Source: Gemmatimonadales bacterium | GTDB taxonomy: Bacteria > Gemmatimonadota > Gemmatimonadetes > Gemmatimonadales > GWC2-71-9 | Direction of reading: 5' to 3' | DNA: 16,144 bases | Assembly: GCA_035637235.1 (NCBI GenBank) | Contig: DASPXO010000025.1 | Location: 1 to 16,144 of the forward strand | In this document: positions 3,510-16,144 of the stretch, one piece after another | How positions within the stretch are numbered: the first letter of the stretch is position 1 | Layout of the letters: every line of letters begins with the position of its first letter | Translations under genes and position numbers: made by a program | Notes under the pieces: generated by a model | Told to the model about the DNA's origin: nothing | The model's input: the letters and a program-made list of their open reading frames with translations, nothing else | Database searches by the model: none

Positions 3510-4031
3510 ATGCCCTTCACCGCCGCCGAGCGCGCCGCCCTGATCGAGCGCTACGCCCACGGTCCCGCGCTCCTGAAGCGCGCTCTCGCCAGGGTCCCCG
3601 CCGAGGCCCTCCAATGGAAACCGGCTCCCGGCAAGTGGTCGGCCCACGAGATCGTCGTCCACTGCGCGGACTCCGAGACCAACGCCCACATGCGGCTGCG
3701 CTACCTGCTCGCCGAGCCGGACCCCATGATCGTGGGATACGACCAGGACCGCTGGGCCGCGGCGTTCGCCTACCACGGGCACCCGATCGAAGTCGCGCTC
3801 GCGACCGTCGAGGCCGTGCGGGCCAACACGGTGCCCCTGCTGAAGCGGATGACCGACCGGGACTGGGGCAAAGTCGGCCGGCACACGGAGTCCGGCCGCT
3901 ACGCCGTGGAAGACTGGCTCGCCATCTACGCCGAGCACCTCGAGAAGCACTCGCGCCAGATCGAGCGAAACCTCGCCGAGTGGAGCGACCGTCCCCCCCC
4001 TCCGCGACGCGGCGAGGGGGCCAGGGGGTGA
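3510..4031 (+). CDS. DinB/YfiT-like (DinB_2 superfamily) putative metal-dependent enzyme
   Basis: ATG 3510 is preceded by SD gaggaga and is in frame with ORF 3393..4031. Sequence MPFTAAERAALIERYAHGPALLKRALARVPAEALQWKPAPGKWSAHEIVVHCADSETNAHMRLRYLL...YAEHLEKHSRQIE carries the His triad pattern of DinB_2 proteins. The C-terminal tail is Pro/Arg/Gly-rich. Confidence 0.85.
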   Translation: MPFTAAERAALIERYAHGPALLKRALARVPAEALQWKPAPGKWSAHEIVVHCADSETNAHMRLRYLLAEPDPMIVGYDQDRWAAAFAYHGHPIEVALATVEAVRANTVPLLKRMTDRDWGKVGRHTESGRYAVEDWLAIYAEHLEKHSRQIERNLAEWSDRPPPPRRGEGARG

Positions 4032-4036
4032 GGCCG

Positions 4037-4432
4037 ATGAGGGGATTCCTGTTTCGCCTGCTCATCACCGCCCTCGGCCTGTGGGCCGCCGCCACCATCG
4101 TTCCCGGGGTCACGATCCGCGGCGTCGGGAACCTGATCGTCGCGGCGCTGCTGCTCGGGCTGGTGAACGCGGTCATCCGACCGGTCATCCTCATCCTGAC
4201 CCTTCCGTTGACGGTGCTCACGCTGGGGCTGTTCATCCTGGTCGTGAACGGGATTTCGCTCGCGCTCGTGGCGTGGCTGATGCCGGGGTTCACCATCGCC
4301 GGGCTGCCCCCGGCGATCCTCGGCTCGATCGTGGTCGGGCTGACCAGCTGGTTCGCTTCCGCGTTCGTCGGCGGCTCGGGCCGCATCGAGCGGATTCGCC
4401 ACATCGAGGTGAGCGGGCGCCGGCTCGATTGA
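4037..4432 (+). CDS. DUF360 / phage-holin-4_2-like small membrane protein (YvlD-like)
   Basis: ATG 4037 (MRGFLFRLLITALGLWAAATIVPGVTIRGVGNLIVAALLLGLVNAVIRPVILILTLPLTVLTLGLFILVVNGISLALVAWLMPGF...) gives four predicted TM helices, typical of DUF360. This is the later part of ORF 3614..4432. A G-rich SD (gggggtgagg) lies upstream. Confidence 0.8.
   Translation: MRGFLFRLLITALGLWAAATIVPGVTIRGVGNLIVAALLLGLVNAVIRPVILILTLPLTVLTLGLFILVVNGISLALVAWLMPGFTIAGLPPAILGSIVVGLTSWFASAFVGGSGRIERIRHIEVSGRRLD
4348..4432 (+). repeat. Direct-repeat copy A (3' end of the intact DUF360 gene), partner at 5968-6051
   Basis: See pseudogene entry 5968..6051. The two copies bracket a 1.5-kb segment carrying the DUF423 and GT87-like genes. 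Confidence 0.7.
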
Positions 4433-4800
4433 TGGACCGGCTCTTCGCGGGGCTTGGCGCCGCGTCGGCGTTGCTCGCGGTGGCCGCCGGCGCGTTCGGC
4501 GCGCACGCGCTGCGCGCCCGGACGCCCGCCGACCTCCTCGCGGTGTTCGAAACCGCAGCCCGCTACCAGATGTACCATGCGCTGGCGCTGCTCGCCGTTG
4601 CCTGGGCGGTGACGCGCTGGCCCGTGCCTGCTGTGCGCGCCGCCGGGTGGCTGTTCGTCGCCGGCACGGTGACCTTCTCCGGCTCGCTCTATCTGCTCGC
4701 GCTGACCGGCGTGCGCGCCTTCGGCGCCGCCACGCCCTTTGGCGGGCTCGCGTTCCTGGCAGGCTGGCTCGCGCTGGCGGTGGGCGTGTGGCGGGGCTGA
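4432..4800 (+). CDS. DUF423 family membrane protein (YgdD-like)
   Basis: ATG 4432 overlaps the DUF360 stop (tgATG). Sequence MDRLFAGLGAASALLAVAAGAFGAHALRA...YQMYHALALLAVAW...VTFSGSLYLLALTG...TPFGGLAFLAGWLALAVGVWRG matches the conserved GAFGAH, Y.xH.LA, FSGSLY.LAL and TP.GG..FLAGW blocks of DUF423. It lies in the frame of ORF 4081..4800. Confidence 0.85.
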   Translation: MDRLFAGLGAASALLAVAAGAFGAHALRARTPADLLAVFETAARYQMYHALALLAVAWAVTRWPVPAVRAAGWLFVAGTVTFSGSLYLLALTGVRAFGAATPFGGLAFLAGWLALAVGVWRG

Positions 4801-5933
4801 CCCCGCGGGAGCGGCGCATCCTCGTCGCGCTCGGGGGACTGTACGCCCTTGTCAATACGTTCATCGGCGTCCACTCCGGCGGCGATCTCGTGTTCCACCT
4901 GCGCCTGGCCGAGCGCCTGATGCAGGGTCTGCCGCTGTACGCGGACTTCGACACGGCGCGTGGCATGCCGTGGCCGCCGTTTGCGATATTCGCGTTGACC
5001 CCGTTTGCGCTCCTGGCTCGCCTCAGTTTGCCGGTCGCCAAGGGCTTGTGGGCGGTCGGCAACGTGGCGCTGTTCGGCTGGTGCGTGGTGCGCGCGTATT
5101 CCCGCGTCGGCCGCTGGCTCCCCGTCGTACTCGCCGTCGCCGCCGTGGCCCAGCCGCTCCAGAGCAACTTCCAGCACCTGAACATCAACATCGCGCTGCT
5201 GGGGCTGGTCGTGTTCGCCATGGACGATGTCGAGCGGGGGCGCGACATGCGGGCGACACTGTGGATTGGCGTCGCCACCGCGCTCAAGGGCTACCCCGGA
5301 GCGATCTTTCTCTATTTCCTCGCGCGCGGCCGCTGGCGGCCGCTGGCCGCGGGCCTCGTCGCCGCGGTCGGGCTCAGTTTCCTGGTGATGCTTCCCGCCG
5401 GTCTCGGGGGAGCCGCGATCGTCCCCGACTACGTACACCTCGCTCTGACCGCCCAGAGCACGAAGGCGCTCGCGGGCCAATCGATCGGCGGGCTCGTCGC
5501 CCGTTTGGGGGGAGGCGTTGCGACCGCAGTGGCGCTCGACCTCATCGCCTCCGGTGTGGTGGCCGCGGCGCTGTGGCGCCGCCGGCGGCTCCAGTCGGGT
5601 GCGGCGGCGTCCGACCTCGGGATGGCCGCGGTGCTCGCCGTGCTGCTCGCGCCGCTCGACCGGCTCCACTACTACGTTCTCGGATTCCCGGCGTGGACCG
5701 ACACGTTTGGCCGCCCCGCACCGGCGCGCGGGCGCACGGCGTGGTTCACCGCGCTCGCCGTCGGGGCATTCCTCACGTCGGGGATGCTGAGCCATATCCA
5801 CGGCCCTCTTCCCGCGGTCTTGTGGATCATTCGCAAGAATACCTACAACCTCGGCGCGCTGATCCTGCTCGGCATTCTCGTGATCCAGCGCGCCCGCGTC
5901 CCCGAACCTCCTCCGGCACCGCAACCTCCATGA
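4788..5933 (+). CDS. Polytopic membrane protein, DUF2029 / glycosyltransferase-87-like (function tentative)
   Basis: Frame of ORF 4647..5933. A GTG at 4788 overlaps the DUF423 stop by 13 nt. The 5' part of the ORF-track ORF is the DUF423 gene read out of frame, so the true start must be near 4788 (alternatives: CTG 4794, or ATG giving MQGLPLYADF about 4920). At least 8 hydrophobic segments, high GC3, Pro-rich C-terminal tail PEPPPAPQPP. The GT87/DUF2029 assignment is by general resemblance only. Confidence 0.6.
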   Translation: MAGLTPRERRILVALGGLYALVNTFIGVHSGGDLVFHLRLAERLMQGLPLYADFDTARGMPWPPFAIFALTPFALLARLSLPVAKGLWAVGNVALFGWCVVRAYSRVGRWLPVVLAVAAVAQPLQSNFQHLNINIALLGLVVFAMDDVERGRDMRATLWIGVATALKGYPGAIFLYFLARGRWRPLAAGLVAAVGLSFLVMLPAGLGGAAIVPDYVHLALTAQSTKALAGQSIGGLVARLGGGVATAVALDLIASGVVAAALWRRRRLQSGAAASDLGMAAVLAVLLAPLDRLHYYVLGFPAWTDTFGRPAPARGRTAWFTALAVGAFLTSGMLSHIHGPLPAVLWIIRKNTYNLGALILLGILVIQRARVPEPPPAPQPP

Positions 5934-5967
5934 CACCTGCCCCACTCTTGCTGTCGGCGCTCTCCTC

Positions 5968-6051
5968 CGGTTCGCGTCCGCGTTCGTCGGCCGCTCGGGC
6001 CGTATCGAGCGGATTCGCCCCATCGAGGTGACGGGGCGCCGCCTCGACTGA
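5968..6051 (+). pseudogene. Remnant of the 3' end of a second DUF360-family gene (28 codons plus stop), about 90% identical to 4348..4432
   Basis: Direct nucleotide alignment of 5968-6051 with 4348-4432 shows about 9 mismatches in 85 nt. The in-frame translation RFASAFVGRSGRIERIRPIEVTGRRLD* compares with WFASAFVGGSGRIERIRHIEVSGRRLD*. Most substitutions are synonymous and the stop codon is conserved. No start or upstream ORF was found. Confidence 0.55.
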
Positions 6052-6181
6052 GGGAAGCCCGGAAGATCTCGAAGAAGGCGCGTCTCGACTTGTAAGGCAG
6101 CAACCACAAAGCTGCCACAAAAATCCCCGCGGCTCGGCGCGCGCACGCTCCGCGCCGTGCCGCCGTGCCTTCCTTCCCCAT

Positions 6182-6217
6182 GTGCGAAAACGCCTTAGGC
6201 GGTGCGAACGCGCCTTA
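6182..6217 (+). promoter_or_regulatory. Two direct repeats GTGCGAAAACGCCTTA / GTGCGAACGCGCCTTA (14/16 identical), 20 nt centre to centre, 80-115 nt upstream of the giant MPE/PKD gene
   Basis: Read directly from the sequence (6182-6197 and 6202-6217). The two-helical-turn spacing is typical of a dimeric or tandem-binding transcription factor site. It lies in a 240-nt non-coding leader of locally lower GC. Confidence 0.4.
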
Positions 6218-6244
6218 CACGCGAGGCACGGCGCGTGCTCCAGG

Positions 6245-6273
6245 GGGGTCGCAAGCCCACGCCCTGCGACCCC
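6245..6273 (+). other. 9-bp stem-loop ggggtcgca / 11-nt loop / tgcgacccc, 22 nt upstream of ATG 6295
   Basis: Perfect inverted repeat read from the sequence. No U-tract follows. It could be an mRNA 5'UTR structure. Confidence 0.35.
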
Positions 6274-6294
6274 TTGAGCCGAGCTGCCCACTAG

Positions 6295-9200
6295 ATGACG
6301 CCGATCCGCTCCATCCGCTCCGTTGTTCGCGTGCTGTCAACCATCGCCGCCCTCTACGTCGTCGAGAGCTGTCGCGACTACCAAGGGCCCGGGTCGCCGA
6401 CCGGGGCGCCGGATCGGTCCGCGCCCGGCTTCGAAGTCTCCCCAGCGCCCCTCCCGGTGACGCTCGTGGGCGCGGGGAACATCGCTAGCTGCAAGAACAC
6501 CAACGACGACGCCACGGCTGCCCTTTTGGACGGGATCCCGGGGACCGTGTTCGCGCTCGGGGACAACGCCTACGACAACGGCACCCTCACCCAGTACAAC
6601 ACCTGCTACAACCCGAACTGGGGACGGCACAAGACCCGCACCCAGCCGGCGGTGGGCGACCGCGACTACAAGACCACCAACGCGGGCGGCTACTTCGGCT
6701 ACTTCGGCAGCGCCGCGGGCGATCCGACAAAGGGCTACTACAGCTACGAACTCGGCGCCTGGCACATCGTCGTGCTCAACAGCAACAGCTCCAAGGTCCC
6801 GACCGCCGCGGGCTCGGCCCAGGAGCAGTGGCTGCGCGCGGACCTCGCCGCCCATCCCGGGCGCTGCACCCTGGCCTACTGGCACCACCCCCGGTTCAGC
6901 TCCAAGGACAGCCCCAACAGCGCCATCACCCCGCTGTGGAACGCGCTCTATGCCGCCGGCGTGGACGTGGTGGTGAACGCCCACTACGCCTTCTACGAGC
7001 GGTTCGCGCCCCAGACCCCGGCCGGCGCCGCCGATGCGGCGTTTGGCATCCGGGAGTTCATCGCCGGTACGGGGGGCGGGGAAACCGGGTCGTTCGGCAC
7101 GGTCCGGGCGAACAGCGAGGTCCGGAGCAGCGGCACGCCGGGCGTGCTCAAGCTCACGCTCGACGCCGACGGCTACGCCTGGGAGTTCGTGCCGATCGCC
7201 GGCAAGACGTTCCGCGACTCGGGGACCGGCGGCTGCCATGGCGCGCCCCCGCTGTCCGTGAACGCCGGGGCCGATGTCACGGCCAGCCCGGGGGACACGG
7301 TGAAGCTCGCCGTCACGCTCACCGATCCCGCGAACGCCCCCCCGTGGACATACACGATCCTGTGGGGCGACGGCGGCTCGAGCAACGGAACCGCCCAATC
7401 CTCGCCGATCATCGCCTCGCACGTGTACTCGGCGCTGGGCCTCGACAGCGTACGCGTCGCCGTCACGAGCAACGTGGGAGGGTCCGGCTCGGACTCACTC
7501 GCCGTGCAGGTGGTCGTGCGGCCCACGTCGGTCGTCCTGGTAGGCGCCGGCGACATCGCCGACTGCACCAGGAACAGCGACTCTCTCACCGCGAACCTGC
7601 TCGACGGCATCCCGGGCACCGTGTTCACGGCGGGCGACAACGCTTACCCCGACGCCTCGAGCAGCGACTACACCAACTGCTACCACCCGACTTGGGGCCG
7701 GCACAAAGCCAGGACCCGACCGGTCCCGGGCAACCACGAGTACAGCACCTCCGGCGCCACACCGTATTACAGCTACTTCGGCGCGGCGGCCGGCGATCCC
7801 ACGAAAGGCTATTACAGCTACGACCTCGGCGATTGGCACATCATCGCCCTGAACTCGAACATCGCGTACGGTGCGGGGTCCGCCCAGGAGCAATGGCTGC
7901 GTGCCGACCTGGCGGCAAGCACGAAGCGCTGCACGCTCGCCTACCTGCATCATCCCCTCTTCAGCTCCGGCACTCTGGCCGCGGCCGGGACACAGGTCCT
8001 GTGGCAGGACCTGTACGTCGCCGGCGCCGAGATCGTGGTCGCCGGGCACGAGCACAACTACCAGCGCTTCGCTCCCGAGACCCCGACCGGCGTGGCCGAT
8101 CCGGTCTACGGTATTCGCGAATTCATCGCGGGGATGGGCGGCGCGGGCCATTTCAGCGTGGGAACAGCCCTGGCGAACACCGAGGTGCAGGAGGACCAGA
8201 CCTATGGGGTCCTCAAGCTGACGTTGTACGCCGCCCGCTACGACTGGGCGTTCGTCCCCGTCGCCGGCAAGACCTTCACGGACTCCGGCAACGAGACGTG
8301 CCATGATGCCCCGGGAGCCGTGAATCACGCGCCCATCGCCGCTGCCGGCGGACCCTACGCCGGCGTGGAGGGCGGCGCGGTCAGCTTCATCGGGAGCGGC
8401 TCCTCGGATCCCGACGGTGACGCGCTGACCTACGCCTGGAGCTTCGGCGACGGCGGCACCGGTAGCGGCGTCAACCCCAGTCACAGCTACGCCGACAACG
8501 GCAGCTACACCGTGACGCTGGCCGTCACCGACGCGCGCGGTGCGTCCAGCTCGGCGGCCACCATCACTGCGACGGTCGCCAATGCGGCGCCCTCGGTCAA
8601 CGCGGGAGCCAATCAGGCCATCGGTGTGGGCGCGAGCTACACGCTCGGCGCCGGCTTCAGCGATCCCGGCACCAACGACGCTCCCTGGGCGTACTCGATC
8701 GACTGGGGTGACGGCTCGTCGCCGACGACCGGGAGCACGACCAGTCAGTCGAGCGCCATCACGGCCACGCACCCATACCCTGCGGCGGGCAGCGACACCG
8801 TGCGCGTGACGGTCACCGACAAGGATGGCGCAACGGGCTCGGGACAGCTCACCGTGACGGTGAGCGACGCGAATCAGCCGCCCACCGCCACGGCCGGCGG
8901 TCCGTATGCCGGCACGGAGGGGACGGCGGTCAGCTTCGACGGTAGCGGCTCGTCGGACCCCGATGGGGACGCTTTGACCTACGCCTGGAGCTTCGGCGAC
9001 GGCGGCACGGGCAGCGGCGTGAAACCCAGCCACAGCTACGCCGACAACGGCGCCTATTCCGTGACGCTCACCGTCACCGACGCCCGCGGGGCGTCCGGCT
9101 CGGCGGCCACGACCACCGCCACGATCGGCAACGTGGCGCCCTCGGTCAACGCGGGCGTAAATCAGACCGTCACCGCGGGGACGAGCGTCACGCTCGATGC

Positions 9201-10212
9201 CGCCTTCAGCGATCCCGGCGCGAACGACGCGCCCTGGTCGTATTCGATCGACTGGGGCGACGGCTCGTCGCCGACGACCGGGGGCACGTCCACGCAGTCC
9301 AGCGCCATCACGGCCACGCATCCATACTCTGCGGCGGGCAGCAACATCGTGCGCGTCACGGTCACGGACAAGGATGGCGCAACCGGCTCGGGACAGCTCA
9401 CCGTGACCGTCACGCAGCCGGGGACGAGCGTCACGCTCGTCGGGGCCGGCGAGGTGACACGGTGCGACAACACGAAGGACGAGGCGACCGCGCTGCTGCT
9501 GGACGACATCCCTGGGACCGTCTTCACCACGGGCGACAACATCCGCGCCAGCGGGTCGCTGTCCGATTTCACCTCGTGCTACGATCCCTCGTGGGGCCGG
9601 CACAAGGCGAGGACGCGGCCGTCGCTCGGCGCGTATGAGTATCAGACCGCCGGCGCTGCGGGGTATTTCGACTACTTCGCGCTCGCCGGCGGAGAGCGGG
9701 ACAAGGGTTACTACACCTACGAGCTCGGCGACTGGCACATCGTCGTGCTGAACAGCAACATCGACATGACCGTCGGCTCCCCGCAGGAGCAATGGCTCCG
9801 CACCGACTTGGCGGCGAGCACGAAGCGCTGCACCCTGGCGTACTGGGCTCACCCCCGATTCAGCTCCTACTCGACGGCCGTGCGCTCGGGCGTCAAGCCG
9901 CTGTGGGATGACCTCTACGCCGCGGGCGCCGAGGTGGTGCTCAACGGGCACTACCGGCTGTACGAGCGGTTCGCCCCGCAGACCCCGGATGAAGTGGCCG
10001 ACCCGCAGAACGGCATCCGTCAATTCACCGTCGGAACGGGCGGGCATGGAGTCGATGCCTTCGGCACCACCCCCCGGCCGAACAGCGAAGTGCGGATCAG
10101 CGGCACGTACGGTGTGCTGCAGCTCACGCTGGGCGACGGCGTCTACTCCTGGCAGTTCGTCCCGGTGGCGGGCCAGACGGCGACCGACTCGGGAAGCGGG
10201 ACTTGCCACTAA
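6295..10212 (+). CDS. Secreted 1305-aa multidomain protein with three purple-acid-phosphatase-like metallophosphoesterase (MPE) domains, of which only the middle one is intact, interleaved with PKD and PKD-like domains
   Basis: ORF-track ORF with ATG 6295, N-terminal signal peptide (MTPIRSIRSVVRVLSTIAALYVVESC) and high GC3 throughout. MPE domain 2 (about nt 7528-8310) carries GDIAD, GDNAY, GNHEY, LHHP and GHEHNYQRF, i.e. the PAP motifs GDxxY / GNHE / xxH / GHxH. Domain 1 (about 6457-7255) reads GNIAS / GDNAY / GDRDY / WHHP / NAHYAFYERF. Domain 3 (about 9430-10209) reads GEVTR / GDNIR / GAYEY / WAHP / GHYRLYERF. Each domain ends F-VP-AGxT--DSG---CH. Between them are PKD domains (VSFxGSGSSDPDGDALTYAWSFGDGGTGSG...YTVTLxVTDARGAS) and PKD-like WGDG-containing domains. 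Confidence 0.9.
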   Translation: MTPIRSIRSVVRVLSTIAALYVVESCRDYQGPGSPTGAPDRSAPGFEVSPAPLPVTLVGAGNIASCKNTNDDATAALLDGIPGTVFALGDNAYDNGTLTQYNTCYNPNWGRHKTRTQPAVGDRDYKTTNAGGYFGYFGSAAGDPTKGYYSYELGAWHIVVLNSNSSKVPTAAGSAQEQWLRADLAAHPGRCTLAYWHHPRFSSKDSPNSAITPLWNALYAAGVDVVVNAHYAFYERFAPQTPAGAADAAFGIREFIAGTGGGETGSFGTVRANSEVRSSGTPGVLKLTLDADGYAWEFVPIAGKTFRDSGTGGCHGAPPLSVNAGADVTASPGDTVKLAVTLTDPANAPPWTYTILWGDGGSSNGTAQSSPIIASHVYSALGLDSVRVAVTSNVGGSGSDSLAVQVVVRPTSVVLVGAGDIADCTRNSDSLTANLLDGIPGTVFTAGDNAYPDASSSDYTNCYHPTWGRHKARTRPVPGNHEYSTSGATPYYSYFGAAAGDPTKGYYSYDLGDWHIIALNSNIAYGAGSAQEQWLRADLAASTKRCTLAYLHHPLFSSGTLAAAGTQVLWQDLYVAGAEIVVAGHEHNYQRFAPETPTGVADPVYGIREFIAGMGGAGHFSVGTALANTEVQEDQTYGVLKLTLYAARYDWAFVPVAGKTFTDSGNETCHDAPGAVNHAPIAAAGGPYAGVEGGAVSFIGSGSSDPDGDALTYAWSFGDGGTGSGVNPSHSYADNGSYTVTLAVTDARGASSSAATITATVANAAPSVNAGANQAIGVGASYTLGAGFSDPGTNDAPWAYSIDWGDGSSPTTGSTTSQSSAITATHPYPAAGSDTVRVTVTDKDGATGSGQLTVTVSDANQPPTATAGGPYAGTEGTAVSFDGSGSSDPDGDALTYAWSFGDGGTGSGVKPSHSYADNGAYSVTLTVTDARGASGSAATTTATIGNVAPSVNAGVNQTVTAGTSVTLDAAFSDPGANDAPWSYSIDWGDGSSPTTGGTSTQSSAITATHPYSAAGSNIVRVTVTDKDGATGSGQLTVTVTQPGTSVTLVGAGEVTRCDNTKDEATALLLDDIPGTVFTTGDNIRASGSLSDFTSCYDPSWGRHKARTRPSLGAYEYQTAGAAGYFDYFALAGGERDKGYYTYELGDWHIVVLNSNIDMTVGSPQEQWLRTDLAASTKRCTLAYWAHPRFSSYSTAVRSGVKPLWDDLYAAGAEVVLNGHYRLYERFAPQTPDEVADPQNGIRQFTVGTGGHGVDAFGTTPRPNSEVRISGTYGVLQLTLGDGVYSWQFVPVAGQTATDSGSGTCH
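8345..9420 (+). repeat. Intragenic tandem duplication, 2 x about 549 nt (183 codons), each unit encoding one PKD plus one PKD-like domain
   Basis: Unit A (from about 8345, gccggcggaccctacgccggcgtggag...) and unit B (from about 8894, gccggcggtccgtatgccggcacggag...) align along their full length at an estimated 85-90% nucleotide identity. The protein units are GGPYAGVEGGAVSFIGSGSSDPDGDALTYAWSFGDGGTGSGVNPSHSYADNGSYTVTL... and GGPYAGTEGTAVSFDGSGSSDPDGDALTYAWSFGDGGTGSGVKPSHSYADNGAYSVTL... Confidence 0.85.
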
Positions 10213-10215
10213 AGG

Positions 10216-10308
10216 CTAGGGGCTAAGGAGCTAAGGGGCTAAGGGGCTAAGGGCCATGGCTGGGTTCTAGCCCTGTCCCGAGCCCCTAGCCCCTAGCCCC
10301 TAGCCCCC
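10216..10308 (+). repeat. Palindromic minisatellite: (GGGGCTAA)-like x 4-5 on the + strand (10216-10253), a 29-nt spacer, then (CCCCTAGC) x 3 (10283-10308)
   Basis: Sequence ggctaggggctaaggagctaaggggctaaggggctaaggg ... cccctagcccctagcccctagccccc. The two arms are imperfectly complementary, giving a long hairpin or cruciform. Each arm also provides at least four G3-4 runs on one strand (left arm on +, right arm on -), i.e. G-quadruplex-capable tracts. It sits between the stop of the giant gene (10212) and the DSD1-like gene (10362). Confidence 0.7.
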
Positions 10309-10361
10309 AGTTACACTCCACGGGGTGTGAAGCCAGGAACCACGACGGCCAGGGACTTCCC

Positions 10362-11474
10362 GTGACCACGCGCGTCCAGGACCTCGAAACCCCAGCCCTG
10401 CTGCTCCACCTCGACGTCGTGCGGCGCAACGTGAAGCGCATGGCGGAGCGGGCGAAGCAGCTCGGCGTGAAGCTTCGGCCGCACGCCAAGACCCACAAGT
10501 GCGTCGAGCTGGGGCGGCTGCAGCTCGAGCACGGCGCGCATGGGCTCACCGTGGCGACGACCGTGGAAGCGGAGGTGTTCGCGCGCGCCGGGGTCCGGGA
10601 CATCACCTGGGCGTTCCCCGTGGATCCGGGTCACATCGCGCGCATGCGCCGCCTCGCCGACGCGACCGGCGCGCTCGTGCGGCTCGTGGTGGACGATCTG
10701 GGCACGGCCAAGGCGCTCGCCGGATCGGGGCTCCACGTCTGGCTCAAAGTGGACTGCGGCTATCACCGCGCCGGGGTCGACCCGACGTCGCCCTACGCCC
10801 TCGAGGTCGGGCGCGAGCTGGGGCGCGAGCGCGGACTCACGTTCGACGGCATCTTGAGCCACTCGGGCCACGCGTACCGCACGAAGACCAAGCAGGAAGC
10901 GGCGCAGGTCGCCGAGCAGGAACGCAGCGTCATGGTGGGCTTCGCCGAGCGAGTACGGAAAGAGGGCGTCCCGCTGCGCGAGATCAGCGTCGGCTCGACG
11001 CCCGCGATGGCGGCGGTGGAGCGCCTCGACGGCGTCACCGAGGCGCGCCCCGGGAACTACGTCTTCTACGACCGGACGATGGTGCTGATCGGCTGCTGCG
11101 CGCCGGAGGACGTCGGCGTGACCGTGCTCGCGTCGGTCGTGTCGCACCAGCCGGGCGCGGCGCACTTCATCGTGGACGCGGGGGCGCTCGCGCTGTCCAA
11201 GGACACGGGGCCGGGGCACGTCGGCCCGCCGGCGATGGGCGCGGTGCGGGGACACCCGGAGCTGACGATCGCGACGCTGTCGCAGGAGCACGGTCTCATC
11301 CGGGCCGAGTCGCCCGCGGCCATCGAGGGTCGGTTCACGGTGGGCGAGAAGGTCGAGATCGTTCCCAACCACTCGTGCCTGACGGTCGCGCATTTCGACG
11401 AGTACCACGTCGTGAGCGGGATGGACGACGGGGGACACGTCGTGGACCGCTGGAGGGTGGAGCGCGGACGATGA
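10362..11474 (+). CDS. PLP-dependent DSD1-family enzyme (D-serine dehydratase-like / D-threonine-aldolase-like; alanine-racemase-type fold)
   Basis: GTG start at 10362 (ORF track). The block LRPHAKTHKC contains the family PLP-lysine signature (PHxKTHKC). A C-terminal beta domain is present. 370 aa, high GC3. Confidence 0.88.
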   Translation: MTTRVQDLETPALLLHLDVVRRNVKRMAERAKQLGVKLRPHAKTHKCVELGRLQLEHGAHGLTVATTVEAEVFARAGVRDITWAFPVDPGHIARMRRLADATGALVRLVVDDLGTAKALAGSGLHVWLKVDCGYHRAGVDPTSPYALEVGRELGRERGLTFDGILSHSGHAYRTKTKQEAAQVAEQERSVMVGFAERVRKEGVPLREISVGSTPAMAAVERLDGVTEARPGNYVFYDRTMVLIGCCAPEDVGVTVLASVVSHQPGAAHFIVDAGALALSKDTGPGHVGPPAMGAVRGHPELTIATLSQEHGLIRAESPAAIEGRFTVGEKVEIVPNHSCLTVAHFDEYHVVSGMDDGGHVVDRWRVERGR

Positions 11475-11893
11475 GCGCACCGCTGCCATCGTTCCCACCG
11501 CCGCCTCCGGCGCTCGTGGCGCTGGCCTGGGCGGTCGTCGGCCCGCCGCTCCTCGTCCTTGCCGCGACCCGGGTGCGGCGGGGACAGATCCGGGTGCACA
11601 TGACCCTGATGCTGGTGAGCGTCGTCGTCGAGCTCGCGGTCGTCGTCGGGTTCTCTTTTCTGATGACGCCGAGCCCGCGTCGCGCGGCGCTCACGGCGCT
11701 GCCCTTCTTCAAGATTCACCTCGCGTTCGCGATCGCGACGCTCGCGGGGATCGCCTGGCAGCTCGTGAGCCGGACGGTGCCCAGGCTGCGCCCGCTGCAC
11801 CGGCACACCGGTCCTTACGTGGTGCTCGTGTGGTGCCTCGCGCTGTTGACGGGGATCTACAACTACGTCTTCCTCTACGTCATGAGCGGCTGA
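11471..11893 (+). CDS. DUF420 family membrane protein (CtaM/YozB-like)
   Basis: ATG 11471 overlaps the upstream stop (ATGA). The 140-aa protein has 4 TM helices and the conserved DUF420 blocks IRVHMTLMLVSV, FFKIHLAFAIATLAGIAW and LHRHTGPYVVLVWCLALLTGIYNYVFLYVM. It lies in the frame of ORF 10499..11893. Confidence 0.82.
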   Translation: MSAPLPSFPPPPPALVALAWAVVGPPLLVLAATRVRRGQIRVHMTLMLVSVVVELAVVVGFSFLMTPSPRRAALTALPFFKIHLAFAIATLAGIAWQLVSRTVPRLRPLHRHTGPYVVLVWCLALLTGIYNYVFLYVMSG

Positions 11894-12171
11894 TGAAAGT
11901 CTTTCTCCGCCATCTGTTCCTGGCCGCCCTGCCCCTCCTGTTCGGGCTCGGGGCGAGCTACGGCTTCGCGCTCAGCATGCAGTCCTGCGGCCGCCTGGTG
12001 GGCGCGGTGTTTGCGTCCAAGTGCCACGGGCGACAGCTCGAATACCAGCTGCTGTTCCAGACCGGCGGGACCGGCCTGGGTACGCTCTTCGCGGCCGTGC
12101 TGGGCGCCCGGCTGGAACATCGACGCCGCCGCGCCGTACAACGGCCTGAACCCACAGGAGGACATTCATGA
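11893..12171 (+). CDS. Small (92 aa) hypothetical membrane protein with a C-x11-CH motif
   Basis: ATG 11893 overlaps the DUF420 stop (TGATG). Sequence MKVFLRHLFLAALPLLFGLGASYGFALSMQSCGRLVGAVFASKCHGRQLEYQLLFQTGGTGLGTLFAAVLGA... begins with a hydrophobic N-terminus. The stop overlaps the next start (ATGA). This is the later part of ORF 11830..12171. Confidence 0.5.
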   Translation: MKVFLRHLFLAALPLLFGLGASYGFALSMQSCGRLVGAVFASKCHGRQLEYQLLFQTGGTGLGTLFAAVLGARLEHRRRRAVQRPEPTGGHS

Positions 12172-12587
12172 CACGGACCTGCGGCATCCTTCCGCTGGCG
12201 CTGCTGGCCGCGCGCGGTCTCGCCGCGCAGGACACCACCCAGGCGATGGCGATGCCGGCCGTCGAGGTCACCGAGGCGGTCGTGGCGAAGTCGCTGGTGG
12301 ACCGCCAACCGCAAGACACCGGGTCCGCGTTCCCGGCGGACGTGGGCCAGCTCATCTGCTGGACCAAAGTGAGCGGCGCGCCGGCGGAGACCGGGACGAC
12401 GCTTCACCACGTTTGGTTTCACGGCGACACCCAGGTCGGCGACGTCGAGCTGCACGTCGCGGGCTCGCCGTGGCGCACGTGGAGCCGCAAGACGGTCCCG
12501 CCGGACTGGACGGGCGCCTGGCACGTCGAGGTGAGAGATGGCTCAGGGACCGTGCTGAAGCGAATCGACTTCACGGTAGGGCAATAG
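12168..12587 (+). CDS. Secreted DUF2914-domain protein
   Basis: A strong SD aggagg lies 6 nt before ATG 12168. The signal peptide is MTRTCGILPLALLAARGLAAQD. The C-terminal domain ...ICWTKVSGAPAETGTTLHHVWFHGDTQVGDVELHVAGSPWRTWSRKTVPPDWTGAWHVEVRDGSGTVLKRIDFTV matches the conserved W-Y/F-H, SPRWRTWS-K and W-G-W-V-V pattern of DUF2914. Confidence 0.75.
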   Translation: MTRTCGILPLALLAARGLAAQDTTQAMAMPAVEVTEAVVAKSLVDRQPQDTGSAFPADVGQLICWTKVSGAPAETGTTLHHVWFHGDTQVGDVELHVAGSPWRTWSRKTVPPDWTGAWHVEVRDGSGTVLKRIDFTVGQ

Positions 12588-12602
12588 GACCGCGCCCCGG
12601 CC

Positions 12603-12656
12603 ACCCCGGGCTCGCACCCCGGGCTCGCGCCCGGGGTCAGTCGCCCGGGGTCAGTC
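12603..12656. terminator. Two tandem 13-mers ACCCCGGGCTCGC (12603-12628) followed by two tandem 14-mers GCCCGGGGTCAGTC (12629-12656) whose cores are reverse complements (ACCCCGGGC / GCCCGGGGT). This gives a 9-bp GC hairpin with a 4-nt loop, or a larger cruciform, at a convergent gene junction.
   Basis: Read directly from the sequence. It lies between the DUF2914 stop (12587) and the minus-strand gene stop (12651-12653) and overlaps the latter's last codons. No U-tracts; a bidirectional terminator role is only inferred from position. Confidence 0.4.
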
Positions 12657-13268
12657 GCGCGTTCTTCTTAGGGCCGGTCTGTGGAGCACCATCCACGCCG
12701 CCGCCGCCGCCGTCTTCTCGTCCGCCCGCCAAGGCCCACCGAGTGAGCGCCCGAAGCCAGCCACCGCGCGCTTCAAGTCCCCTGGCGACCGTCTCAGGAC
12801 CCTTGCCGCCTCGGTGTATGCCTCCCGTTCCACCACCACGGTGCACGGCAGCTCGAACGATCCGGCCGCGTCCGCGAGCACCACCCGGAACAGCTGCCCT
12901 TCGAGCGCGTGCGCACGGATGTGGTCATTCGCGATCCTGGCCGGGTCGATCGTGCTCCCCACGACGAGGCCGGCGGCGCGGACGTCGTGACCGGCGGTAC
13001 GGTATTCCCTGAGCAGCACGCCCACGGACCGACGGGTGACTCGCTCCACCACCTTCCGCAGGTGCTGCTCCAGCTTCGCACCGGCTGCCCGGGACGCCCC
13101 CATCACCGCATGGTACGGTTGGCGGGACGACGGCACCACCGGATCGCTCAGCTCGATGACCCGCCGATCCGCCACACGCGGCGCGCGCGCCGGGCCGACC
13201 AAAAGGACGGCGGTGGCCCAGCCCGACTTCACGCGGAATCCGATGGCGGCTCGAGTCCTCTGCGGCAC
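12651..13268 (-). CDS. Hypothetical protein (205 aa), no family recognised
   Basis: Minus-strand ORF with very high GC3, e.g. QLFRVVLADAAGSFELPCTVVVERE. It lies 13 nt downstream of the PP2C gene on the same strand. The GTG start at 13268 is not well supported (no SD). The last 2-3 codons overlap the palindromic repeat array at 12603-12656. Confidence 0.6.
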   Translation of the reverse strand: MPQRTRAAIGFRVKSGWATAVLLVGPARAPRVADRRVIELSDPVVPSSRQPYHAVMGASRAAGAKLEQHLRKVVERVTRRSVGVLLREYRTAGHDVRAAGLVVGSTIDPARIANDHIRAHALEGQLFRVVLADAAGSFELPCTVVVEREAYTEAARVLRRSPGDLKRAVAGFGRSLGGPWRADEKTAAAAAWMVLHRPALRRTRD

Positions 13269-15824: not shown

Positions 15825-15981
15825 GGCGCTGAATCTGCACCGTCCGACGCCGGGCCGCGAGTGCGCCTACTGGACGTCGCGCGTCGTCCATTCGTCGAGA
15901 ATCCCGTCCTTCGCTGCGCGCTGCCGGGGCAGGCTAACGGACCGGGCGATCGTTGGTCAAGATGTGGCATCGGTGCCGCAC

Positions 15982-16144
15982 CTCGTTCAGTGCGCCTCTC
16001 GCGCCGTGGCCGTGAGTGAACCGCCCCCGCCGAGCTCCCACGTCCGCCACAGGAAGTACACCGCGGGAATCACCACCAGCGTCAGCACCGTCGCCGTCAC
16101 CATGCCGCCGACCATGGGCGCCGCAATCCGCTTCATCACGTCGG
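15982..16144 (-). CDS. RND-family efflux transporter permease (AcrB/CzcA/CusA type), C-terminal 53 codons only; the 5' end lies beyond the window end
   Basis: Reverse-complement translation DVMKRIAAPMVGGMVTATVLTLVVIPAVYFLWRTWELGGGGSLTATAREAH* is the characteristic last TM helix and tail of RND pumps (PMVGG...TLLTLxVIPxxY). The stop is the rc of 15982-15984. Confidence 0.75.

Follow-up and report, generated by a model that had tools for sequence, protein, structure and literature searches.

Four same-strand genes whose stop and start codons overlap one after another raise the question of whether their products form an obligate unit. The genes occupy positions 10362-12587 of a 16,144-nt stretch (hereafter, the window) of contig DASPXO010000025.1, from the Gemmatimonadales assembly GCA_035637235.1. 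Their open reading frames (ORFs) encode, in order, a DSD1-type enzyme dependent on pyridoxal phosphate (PLP) (ORF1, the dehydratase), a DUF420-like membrane protein (ORF2), a small membrane protein carrying a pair of cysteines (ORF3), and a secreted DUF2914 protein (ORF4). An original prediction took the overlaps to imply obligatory co-translation and fixed stoichiometry. Comparison with related loci shows the operon to be real, restricted to a lineage of uncultured soil Gemmatimonadales, and kept through about 30% protein divergence and turnover of its flanks. The same comparison shows its constant part to be the dehydratase with ORF3 and ORF4, the DUF420-like gene being ancestral but dispensable. 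We favor the explanation, to which we give about an even chance, that the four genes are the real 3' end of a vertically inherited operon in which the dehydratase and an ORF3/ORF4 envelope pair serve one task, with the DUF420-like protein as an optional accessory.

The junctions were read directly in the sequence. ORF1 (10362-11474, plus strand; 370 aa) opens with a GTG codon and closes with TGA at 11472-11474, forming an ATGA overlap with the ATG at 11471 of ORF2 (11471-11893, plus strand; 140 aa). The TGA of ORF2 at 11891-11893 shares 1 nt, as TGATG, with the ATG at 11893 of ORF3 (11893-12171, plus strand; 92 aa), and a second ATGA joins ORF3 to ORF4 (12168-12587, plus strand; 139 aa; ATG at 12168). 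A Shine-Dalgarno-like AGGAGG, also read from the sequence, lies at 12156-12161 (plus strand) within the 3' end of ORF3, 6 nt 5' of the ORF4 ATG. The window, which has a base composition of 70% G+C, matches WNFU01004891.1, a contig from a soil Gemmatimonadales metagenome-assembled genome (GCA_009772115.1), and has near-identical copies in several soil metagenomes. The same four genes are called in the public annotation of WNFU01004891.1, so that the predicted order and the ATGA, TGATG, and ATGA junctions were borne out by both direct reading and public gene calls. Such overlaps are ordinary operon punctuation in this genome, since they are found in 8 of the 18 same-strand neighbor pairs on that contig, 5 of them outside the cluster.

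The third codon position has a GC fraction of about 0.9 in ORF1, ORF2, and ORF4; it is ambiguous in ORF3 (0.74-0.78, the same as in the antisense frame). Substitutions in the orthologs of all four genes follow the order position 3 > position 1 > position 2, with values of 0.468, 0.321, and 0.245, respectively, for ORF3 (19 orthologs). Because it shows this order as well as 53-72% protein identity to relatives in tblastn, ORF3 can be taken as a genuine plus-strand gene. Codon-position composition, together with the pattern of substitutions, ruled out the antisense ORFs at 10311-11498 and 11875-12165 (both minus strand).

A scan of one genome per species seeded with ORF2 returned 22 loci, all from Gemmatimonadales. 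All four genes stand in order in 16 of them, mostly with -4/-1 junctions, and in one more with a truncated DUF420 gene. Two loci have DUF420-ORF3-ORF4 without the dehydratase, one has the dehydratase and DUF420 followed by an IS481 transposase, and two have DUF420 alone (one of these by a DUF411/CopG gene and near a SoxE cupredoxin). The adjacency is therefore neither fortuitous nor unique to this genome, as had been anticipated. Because this sample is biased by its query, a second scan, of metagenomes, was seeded with the dehydratase alignment. It yielded 27 close orthologs (at least 69% identity), of which two were too short for judgement and 25 were informative for DUF420. The DUF420-like gene was present in five of the latter and missing in 20, comprising 18 dehydratase-ORF3-ORF4 loci and two cut by a contig end. 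ORF3 and ORF4 homologs were found in every one of the 27 loci with enough downstream DNA. One further locus without DUF420, L035, is abundant and was reached through an ORF4 look-up.

The absences point to repeated deletion. Spacers of about 100 nt between the dehydratase and ORF3 genes in L035 (6603-6704), L039, and L046 hold a 55-60-nt remnant of ORF2 (ORF2 nt 124-187, the region of its second transmembrane (TM) segment), with local alignment scores of 45, 34, and 35 against shuffled maxima of 24-29. Because the spacers retain this remnant, the DUF420-like gene was deleted from these loci rather than originally absent. On the dehydratase tree, clades without DUF420 are interspersed among DUF420-bearing ones, implying that the gene was lost independently at least five times. 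In the clade formed by L053-L061, the dehydratase directly abuts ORF3 and no ORF2 remnant is seen. At L034 (6001-6162), the DUF420 homolog is cut to its C-terminal third (residues 91-139) with the other three genes intact, and this may be a loss in progress. At L019, an IS481-family transposase (8075-9220, minus strand) lies 3' of the dehydratase-DUF420 pair with 1.7 kb between; it is the one such locus without ORF3/ORF4, which suggests disruption mediated by an insertion sequence.

This pattern of gene loss largely refutes the view that the four products make up an obligate membrane complex of fixed stoichiometry, either a CtaM-like metallation module or a D-amino-acid catabolic one, with a heme- or metal-binding C-x11-CH motif in ORF3. 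Overlapping same-strand stop and start codons, as such a unit should have, are indeed found at all three junctions, and the four-gene order holds in 16-17 of the 22 genomes found via DUF420. The members are not, however, kept together wherever the cluster occurs, with the DUF420-like gene lost from most dehydratase-seeded loci and the dehydratase gone from one clade, and overlaps are common on the contig in any case. We consider the obligate complex highly improbable, and further points on either side of it arise with the individual proteins.

What stays together is the remainder of the cluster. ORF3 and ORF4 co-occur in all of the 45+ loci that hold either gene and reach far enough downstream, and they are nearly always located 3' of the dehydratase. 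The genes 5' of the dehydratase vary (an M24 peptidase, a methyltransferase, GT87, or, in the window, a PKD protein) while the tail of the cluster stays intact; an M24 peptidase gene lies within two genes 5' of the dehydratase in 21 of 35 informative loci. No conservation was seen in the downstream flanks.

The identity of the dehydratase is the clearest of the four. ORF1 matches both Ala_racemase_N (PF01168; 1e-24, 88 bits against a cut-off of 24.1) and D-ser_dehydrat (PF14031; 6e-23, 81.7 bits against a cut-off of 22), the two domains that characterize DSD1-like fold-type III PLP enzymes. Its best matches in the PDB were D-threo-3-hydroxyaspartate (D-THA) dehydratase (3wqc, 3e-69) and chicken D-serine dehydratase (3anu, 6e-66), and D-threonine and 3-hydroxyaspartate aldolases scored far below these dehydratases. 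In the alignment to 3wqc, the putative PLP-binding Lys43 (PHAKTHK) falls on the lysine of HVKTSK, and the putative metal site N-H337-S-C339 aligns with N-H-A-C, corresponding to H351/C353 of D-THA dehydratase; both are invariant in the dehydratase alignment. The position of the metal-site histidine is marked by chain 4pb3, which has an alanine there. Hydropathy and charge analysis found no signal peptide or TM segment in ORF1. These features place ORF1 as a cytoplasmic fold-type III PLP enzyme of the DSD1/D-serine-dehydratase-like family, on its dehydratase branch, in agreement with the DSD1-like assignment first made for it, and they make a role in D-amino-acid catabolism plausible. The BhcC 3-hydroxy-D-aspartate aldolase equivalog (NCBIfam NF045642) was rejected for ORF1 at 140.5 bits against a cut-off of 690.

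ORF2 had been assigned to DUF420 and described as CtaM-like, and this assignment held in part. Four TM helices are predicted (12-34, 40-64, 78-102, and 114-138) in an AlphaFold model with a pLDDT of 78.7, in agreement with hydropathy, as in CtaM and the DUF420 family, and two Arg-rich loops would put loops 1 and 3 in the cytoplasm. The similarity to DUF420 is weak but consistent: all 22 aligned homologs match the family, only at about E 1e-7 (best 2.3e-7), and 20 of the 22 also match DUF2306. The part that did not stand is full membership, as ORF2 itself scored 30.3 bits against DUF420 (PF04238), a marginal miss of the gathering cut-off of 30.5, and 26.5 bits against DUF2306. Across the homologs H43, H83, H110, W121, C122, Y130, and N131 are invariant. 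A Foldseek search of the model against the PDB gave nothing significant (best E 0.78, to oxidase subunit III and STEAP) and no support for likeness to heme A synthase or a reductase. Sequence searches with ORF2 found no relatives in the PDB and, by tblastn, no match in 72,556 plasmids; a class-III signal match (E 0.13) was dismissed as noise. Overall, ORF2 fits best as a divergent protein of the DUF420/DUF2306 group, a distant relative rather than a demonstrated CtaM.

CtaM, a DUF420 protein, is required for aa3 oxidases, and its gene adjoins ctaB and is confined to genomes with aa3-type oxidases (PMC4958251). It has been proposed to export or reduce copper (PMC13344008), and whether DUF420 is homologous to heme A synthase is disputed (PMC8239418 versus PMC12808453). 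The need for CtaM in aa3 oxidases, its proposed dealings with copper, the three invariant His and the invariant Cys of ORF2, and the invariant Cys pair of ORF3 speak for the obligate complex. No cox/cta genes (ctaA, ctaB, or cox/qox) were found, however, within 16-20 kb of the ORF2 gene in five genomic contexts. This result, together with the sub-threshold DUF420 score and the expendability of the gene, makes the CtaM/heme-copper-oxidase reading of ORF2 a weak one, and both the score and the missing oxidase genes also weigh against the obligate complex. A role of the cluster in heme-copper oxidase assembly is likewise not supported, nor is the link to CtaM and heme-copper oxidases drawn in the original prediction.

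The DUF420-like protein could, alternatively, belong with ORF3 and ORF4 in an envelope triad that handles copper or heme, consisting of a CtaM-type His-lined bundle, a periplasmic Cys-pair protein, and a chaperone or adaptor sandwich, with the dehydratase as a passenger. The copper export or reduction proposed for CtaM (PMC13344008) and a single DUF411/SoxE context argue for this. That context is in OZ252244.1, a complete 3.86-Mb genome (L007/L008, the same as L023), where, within locus positions 5378-8402, a lone ORF2 homolog lies 40 nt 3' of a DUF411 (CopG-type) gene and near genes for SoxE, a sulfocyanin-like cupredoxin, and TauE; it is the sole copper-flavored context of an ORF2 homolog seen. 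We nevertheless judge the triad quite improbable. ORF3 and ORF4 persist in many lineages without ORF2, the copper context is limited to that one genome, no copper-related genes are conserved around the cluster, the ORF2 model has no significant structural match, CtaA and STEAP included, and ORF4 has no conserved metal-ligand residues.

ORF3 was predicted to be a small Cys-containing membrane protein, and it proved to be conserved with an invariant Cys pair. In 45-47 unique sequences, R6, P14, F25, C32, G37, C44, Y51, G59, G63, E75, and R77 are invariant. The C32-x11-C44-H45 motif of the window had been put forward as a metal or heme ligand pair; position 45 is variable in the homologs (H, A, or R), which counts against that proposal and, with it, the obligate complex, and a heme-c-like reading of C-x11-CH was ruled out as the histidine is not conserved. 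Hydropathy indicates one clear TM segment (about residues 8-27) and a weaker Gly-rich hydrophobic segment (about 57-73), with the Cys pair in the loop between them. Both ends are basic, with K2 and R6 at the N-terminus and an RRRR-rich tail at the C-terminus, and this suggests an N-in/C-in topology with Cys32 and Cys44 facing the periplasm. No family in Pfam or NCBIfam matched ORF3, and a MYXO-CTERM match (E 0.07) was dismissed as noise. A profile of 33 homologs, run against 1.84 billion representative sequences, retrieved just 25 cluster representatives at E<=1e-3, and none of these 25 showed a fusion of the ORF3-like domain to DUF420, DUF2914, or any other domain. By these searches ORF3 is a member of a narrow, unclassified family seen only in this lineage.

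The DUF2914 assignment of ORF4 was confirmed by a score of 68.6 bits against PF11141 (3.7e-19; cut-off 23.6) in a full-length match covering positions 2-62 of the 62-position model. The protein is laid out as a signal-peptide-like N-terminus, an Ala/Pro-rich linker, and an 8-stranded, Trp-rich, Ig-like beta-sandwich that corresponds to DUF2914; the secreted location originally proposed for it agrees with this layout. Signal cleavage is predicted after LAA and before an invariant QDT. The A-Q-D at the predicted signal-peptidase site (residues 20-22, window 12225-12233) is invariant in 41-42 of 42 homologs, and the linker that follows is highly variable; the N-terminal Gln of the mature protein may be important, for instance by forming pyroglutamate or by being part of a recognition motif. 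No His, Cys, or Met is invariant among the homologs, which argues against the metallation role suggested for a module including the periplasmic DUF2914 protein, and against the obligate complex built around it. Sequence searches with ORF4 found no relatives in the PDB and, using tblastn, no match in 72,556 plasmids, and we found no functional literature on DUF2914.

Taken together, these features can be arranged into a tentative scheme for the favored explanation. ORF1 would catalyze the PLP- and divalent-metal-dependent beta-elimination of a D-beta-hydroxy-amino acid to a 2-oxo acid and ammonia. ORF3, anchored in the membrane with its Cys pair on the periplasmic side, and the secreted ORF4 sandwich would form an inseparable envelope pair, which may act as an envelope-side binding or thiol-disulfide component. 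The dehydratase and this pair would work on a single physiological task where cytoplasm and envelope meet. That task would probably be to handle D-hydroxy-amino acids of amino-acid or peptide origin, as the M24 peptidase gene just 5' in most relatives suggests a catabolic theme involving peptides or amino acids. ORF2, a four-helix protein with three invariant His, would be an ancestral but optional accessory rather than an obligate subunit, since it has been deleted repeatedly from the cluster. We find a more specific version of this scheme rather doubtful, in which ORF3/ORF4 are a previously unrecognised envelope module coupled to a D-hydroxy-amino-acid dehydratase, for example to sense, capture, or carry out redox chemistry on an envelope or soil substrate that contains D-amino acids and yields the product degraded by the enzyme, with the DUF420-like His-bundle as an optional redox or metal accessory.

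Several observations weigh against a shared task. The cluster is confined to one order, so that its conservation may partly be mere shared ancestry; it should be noted that the best 120 matches of the ORF2 and ORF4 homolog searches were all close Gemmatimonadales relatives, which left other phyla beyond the reach of these searches. All three partners are absent, as judged with clade HMMs, from 53 distant DSD1-like loci (34-51% identity), where the neighboring genes are a mixed set that includes those for Nramp, a beta-lactamase-family protein, a radical SAM protein, DinB_2, and transketolase. The co-occurrence of DSD1-like, DUF420, and DUF2914 genes proposed as a check was seen repeatedly in Gemmatimonadales genomes and contigs and in none of these distant loci. 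The dehydratase is also dispensable to the ORF3/ORF4 pair, as one clade keeps DUF420-ORF3-ORF4 alone; the loci without the dehydratase form a single clade on the DUF420 tree. Finally, the topology predicted for ORF3 was derived solely from hydropathy and the positive-inside rule, and the second of its hydrophobic segments is a weak one.

The restriction to Gemmatimonadales and the unrelated neighbors of distant DSD1-like genes would also suit an operon of convenience, in which a stand-alone D-amino-acid dehydratase and miscellaneous small envelope proteins of unrelated functions are co-transcribed and co-inherited in one lineage. The region belongs to a long and fluid series of genes for small membrane proteins (DinB_2, PF04020, DUF423, GT87) in which insertions and losses are common, and ORF1 and ORF2 can each be lost, as this explanation would have it. 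What it fits less well is that the adjacency of the dehydratase to ORF3/ORF4 has outlasted about 30% protein divergence, repeated deletion of the gene between them, and turnover of both flanks, and that in the L053-L061 clade the junction has again become a direct abutment. Such persistence is usually read as selection for co-expression. We regard an operon of convenience as unlikely, while still a serious contender.

The favored explanation also gives the locus its interest. Of the four components, the dehydratase adds a member to a known enzyme family, ORF2 is a marginal relative of DUF420, ORF4 is a DUF2914 protein, and ORF3 is a small protein of a narrow, unclassified kind. Their association is undescribed, in line with the original view that the combination is not a described functional unit, and we found no literature on the dehydratase/DUF420/ORF3/DUF2914 gene combination. 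If the coupling is functional, it would provide the first context-based clue to the function of DUF2914 and a clue to a family of tiny membrane proteins with a Cys pair, seen in this lineage alone. It would also show DUF420-type proteins to occur away from oxidase loci, in a setting where they can be lost. The envelope-module version, if true, would for the first time offer a way into the function of DUF2914 and of DUF420 proteins unconnected with oxidases. The main value at present is corrective: an apparent four-gene machine with a CtaM core becomes a three-gene conserved core, without the CtaM-like member, in one uncultured soil lineage.

Two hairpins flank the operon. The 5' hairpin (10219-10307, strand unspecified), detected by a repeat and inverted-repeat scan and RNA folding, is long and imperfect, and lies between ORF1 and a gene encoding a 1305-aa PKD protein. 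It is built of four tandem GGGGCTAA 8-mers opposite four TAGCCCC copies (intergenic 10214-10310) and has a fold energy of -70.4 kcal/mol (z -4.6); its 16-mer GGGGCTAAGGGGCTAA was confined, among 36 loci compared, to this organism's contigs. In this organism the transcription unit probably has its 5' boundary here. The GC-rich 3' hairpin (12588-12664, strand unspecified), found by repeat scan and RNA folding, follows the ORF4 stop immediately, between convergent genes. Side by side within it, at 12600-12655, a 13-nt unit and then a 14-nt unit are each perfectly duplicated in tandem. It has a fold energy of -53.3 kcal/mol (z -4.8) and is likely a 3' boundary or terminator. A scan of 9900-13000 for sigma-70 promoter and intrinsic-terminator consensus gave no match, the hairpins having come from folding, and no Rfam family was found in the whole window at gathering thresholds.

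The 1305-aa product of the PKD gene (6295-10212) combines a metallophosphoesterase domain of calcineurin-like type with five or more PKD repeats. The gene sits where most relatives have an M24 peptidase and/or a methyltransferase directly 5' of the dehydratase, and looks like a lineage-specific replacement or insertion. Further upstream, gene calls and conservation define a syntenic block at 3510-5933 (plus strand), made of DinB_2 (3510-4031), a 4-TM PF04020 protein (4037-4432), DUF423 (4432-4800), and GT87 (4788-5933); in relatives this fluid DinB_2-PF04020-DUF423-GT87 string continues into the dehydratase cluster. Locus L017 shows an uninterrupted DinB_2-PF04020-DUF423-DUF420-ORF3-ORF4 arrangement. 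For the minus-strand gene 3' of ORF4, the public call (12638-13219, 193 aa) and the longest ORF (12651-13268) are in different frames; the former is backed by tblastn conservation (52-73% identity in other loci), and third-position GC slightly favors the latter. An RND efflux operon (ACR_tran pump, CusB/CzcB-like adaptor, and OEP) reaches into the window with its 3' end at 15974-16144 (minus strand) and extends beyond it (13807-19429 in our locus L001, whose positions convert to window coordinates by adding 2167). This 3' end is about 3.4 kb downstream of the cluster, on the opposite strand; the operon is present only on contigs of this organism and is not conserved alongside the cluster.

Among known systems, the dehydratase compares most directly with D-threo-3-hydroxyaspartate dehydratase of Delftia sp. 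HT23 (3wqc) and the eukaryotic-type D-serine dehydratase of chicken (3anu; yeast Dsd1p family), sharing with them the PF01168 and PF14031 domains, a full-length alignment, the PLP lysine, and the His/Cys metal site. It is only about 41% identical to dehydratases of this type and is encoded in an operon with envelope proteins, whereas the distant DSD1-like relatives examined are not. ORF2 resembles CtaM/YozB of Staphylococcus aureus and Bacillus subtilis in being a small 4-TM protein with weak PF04238 similarity in all homologs, and some sources label its homologs "YozB (DUF420 family)". It differs from them in being shorter (134-140 aa), in having a DUF420 score close to its DUF2306 score, in not lying by ctaA, ctaB, or cox genes, and in its repeated loss from the cluster. 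For ORF4, the closest known systems include the immunoglobulin-like protein PA1606 of Pseudomonas aeruginosa (PDB 3n6y) and other Ig/macroglobulin-like beta-sandwiches.

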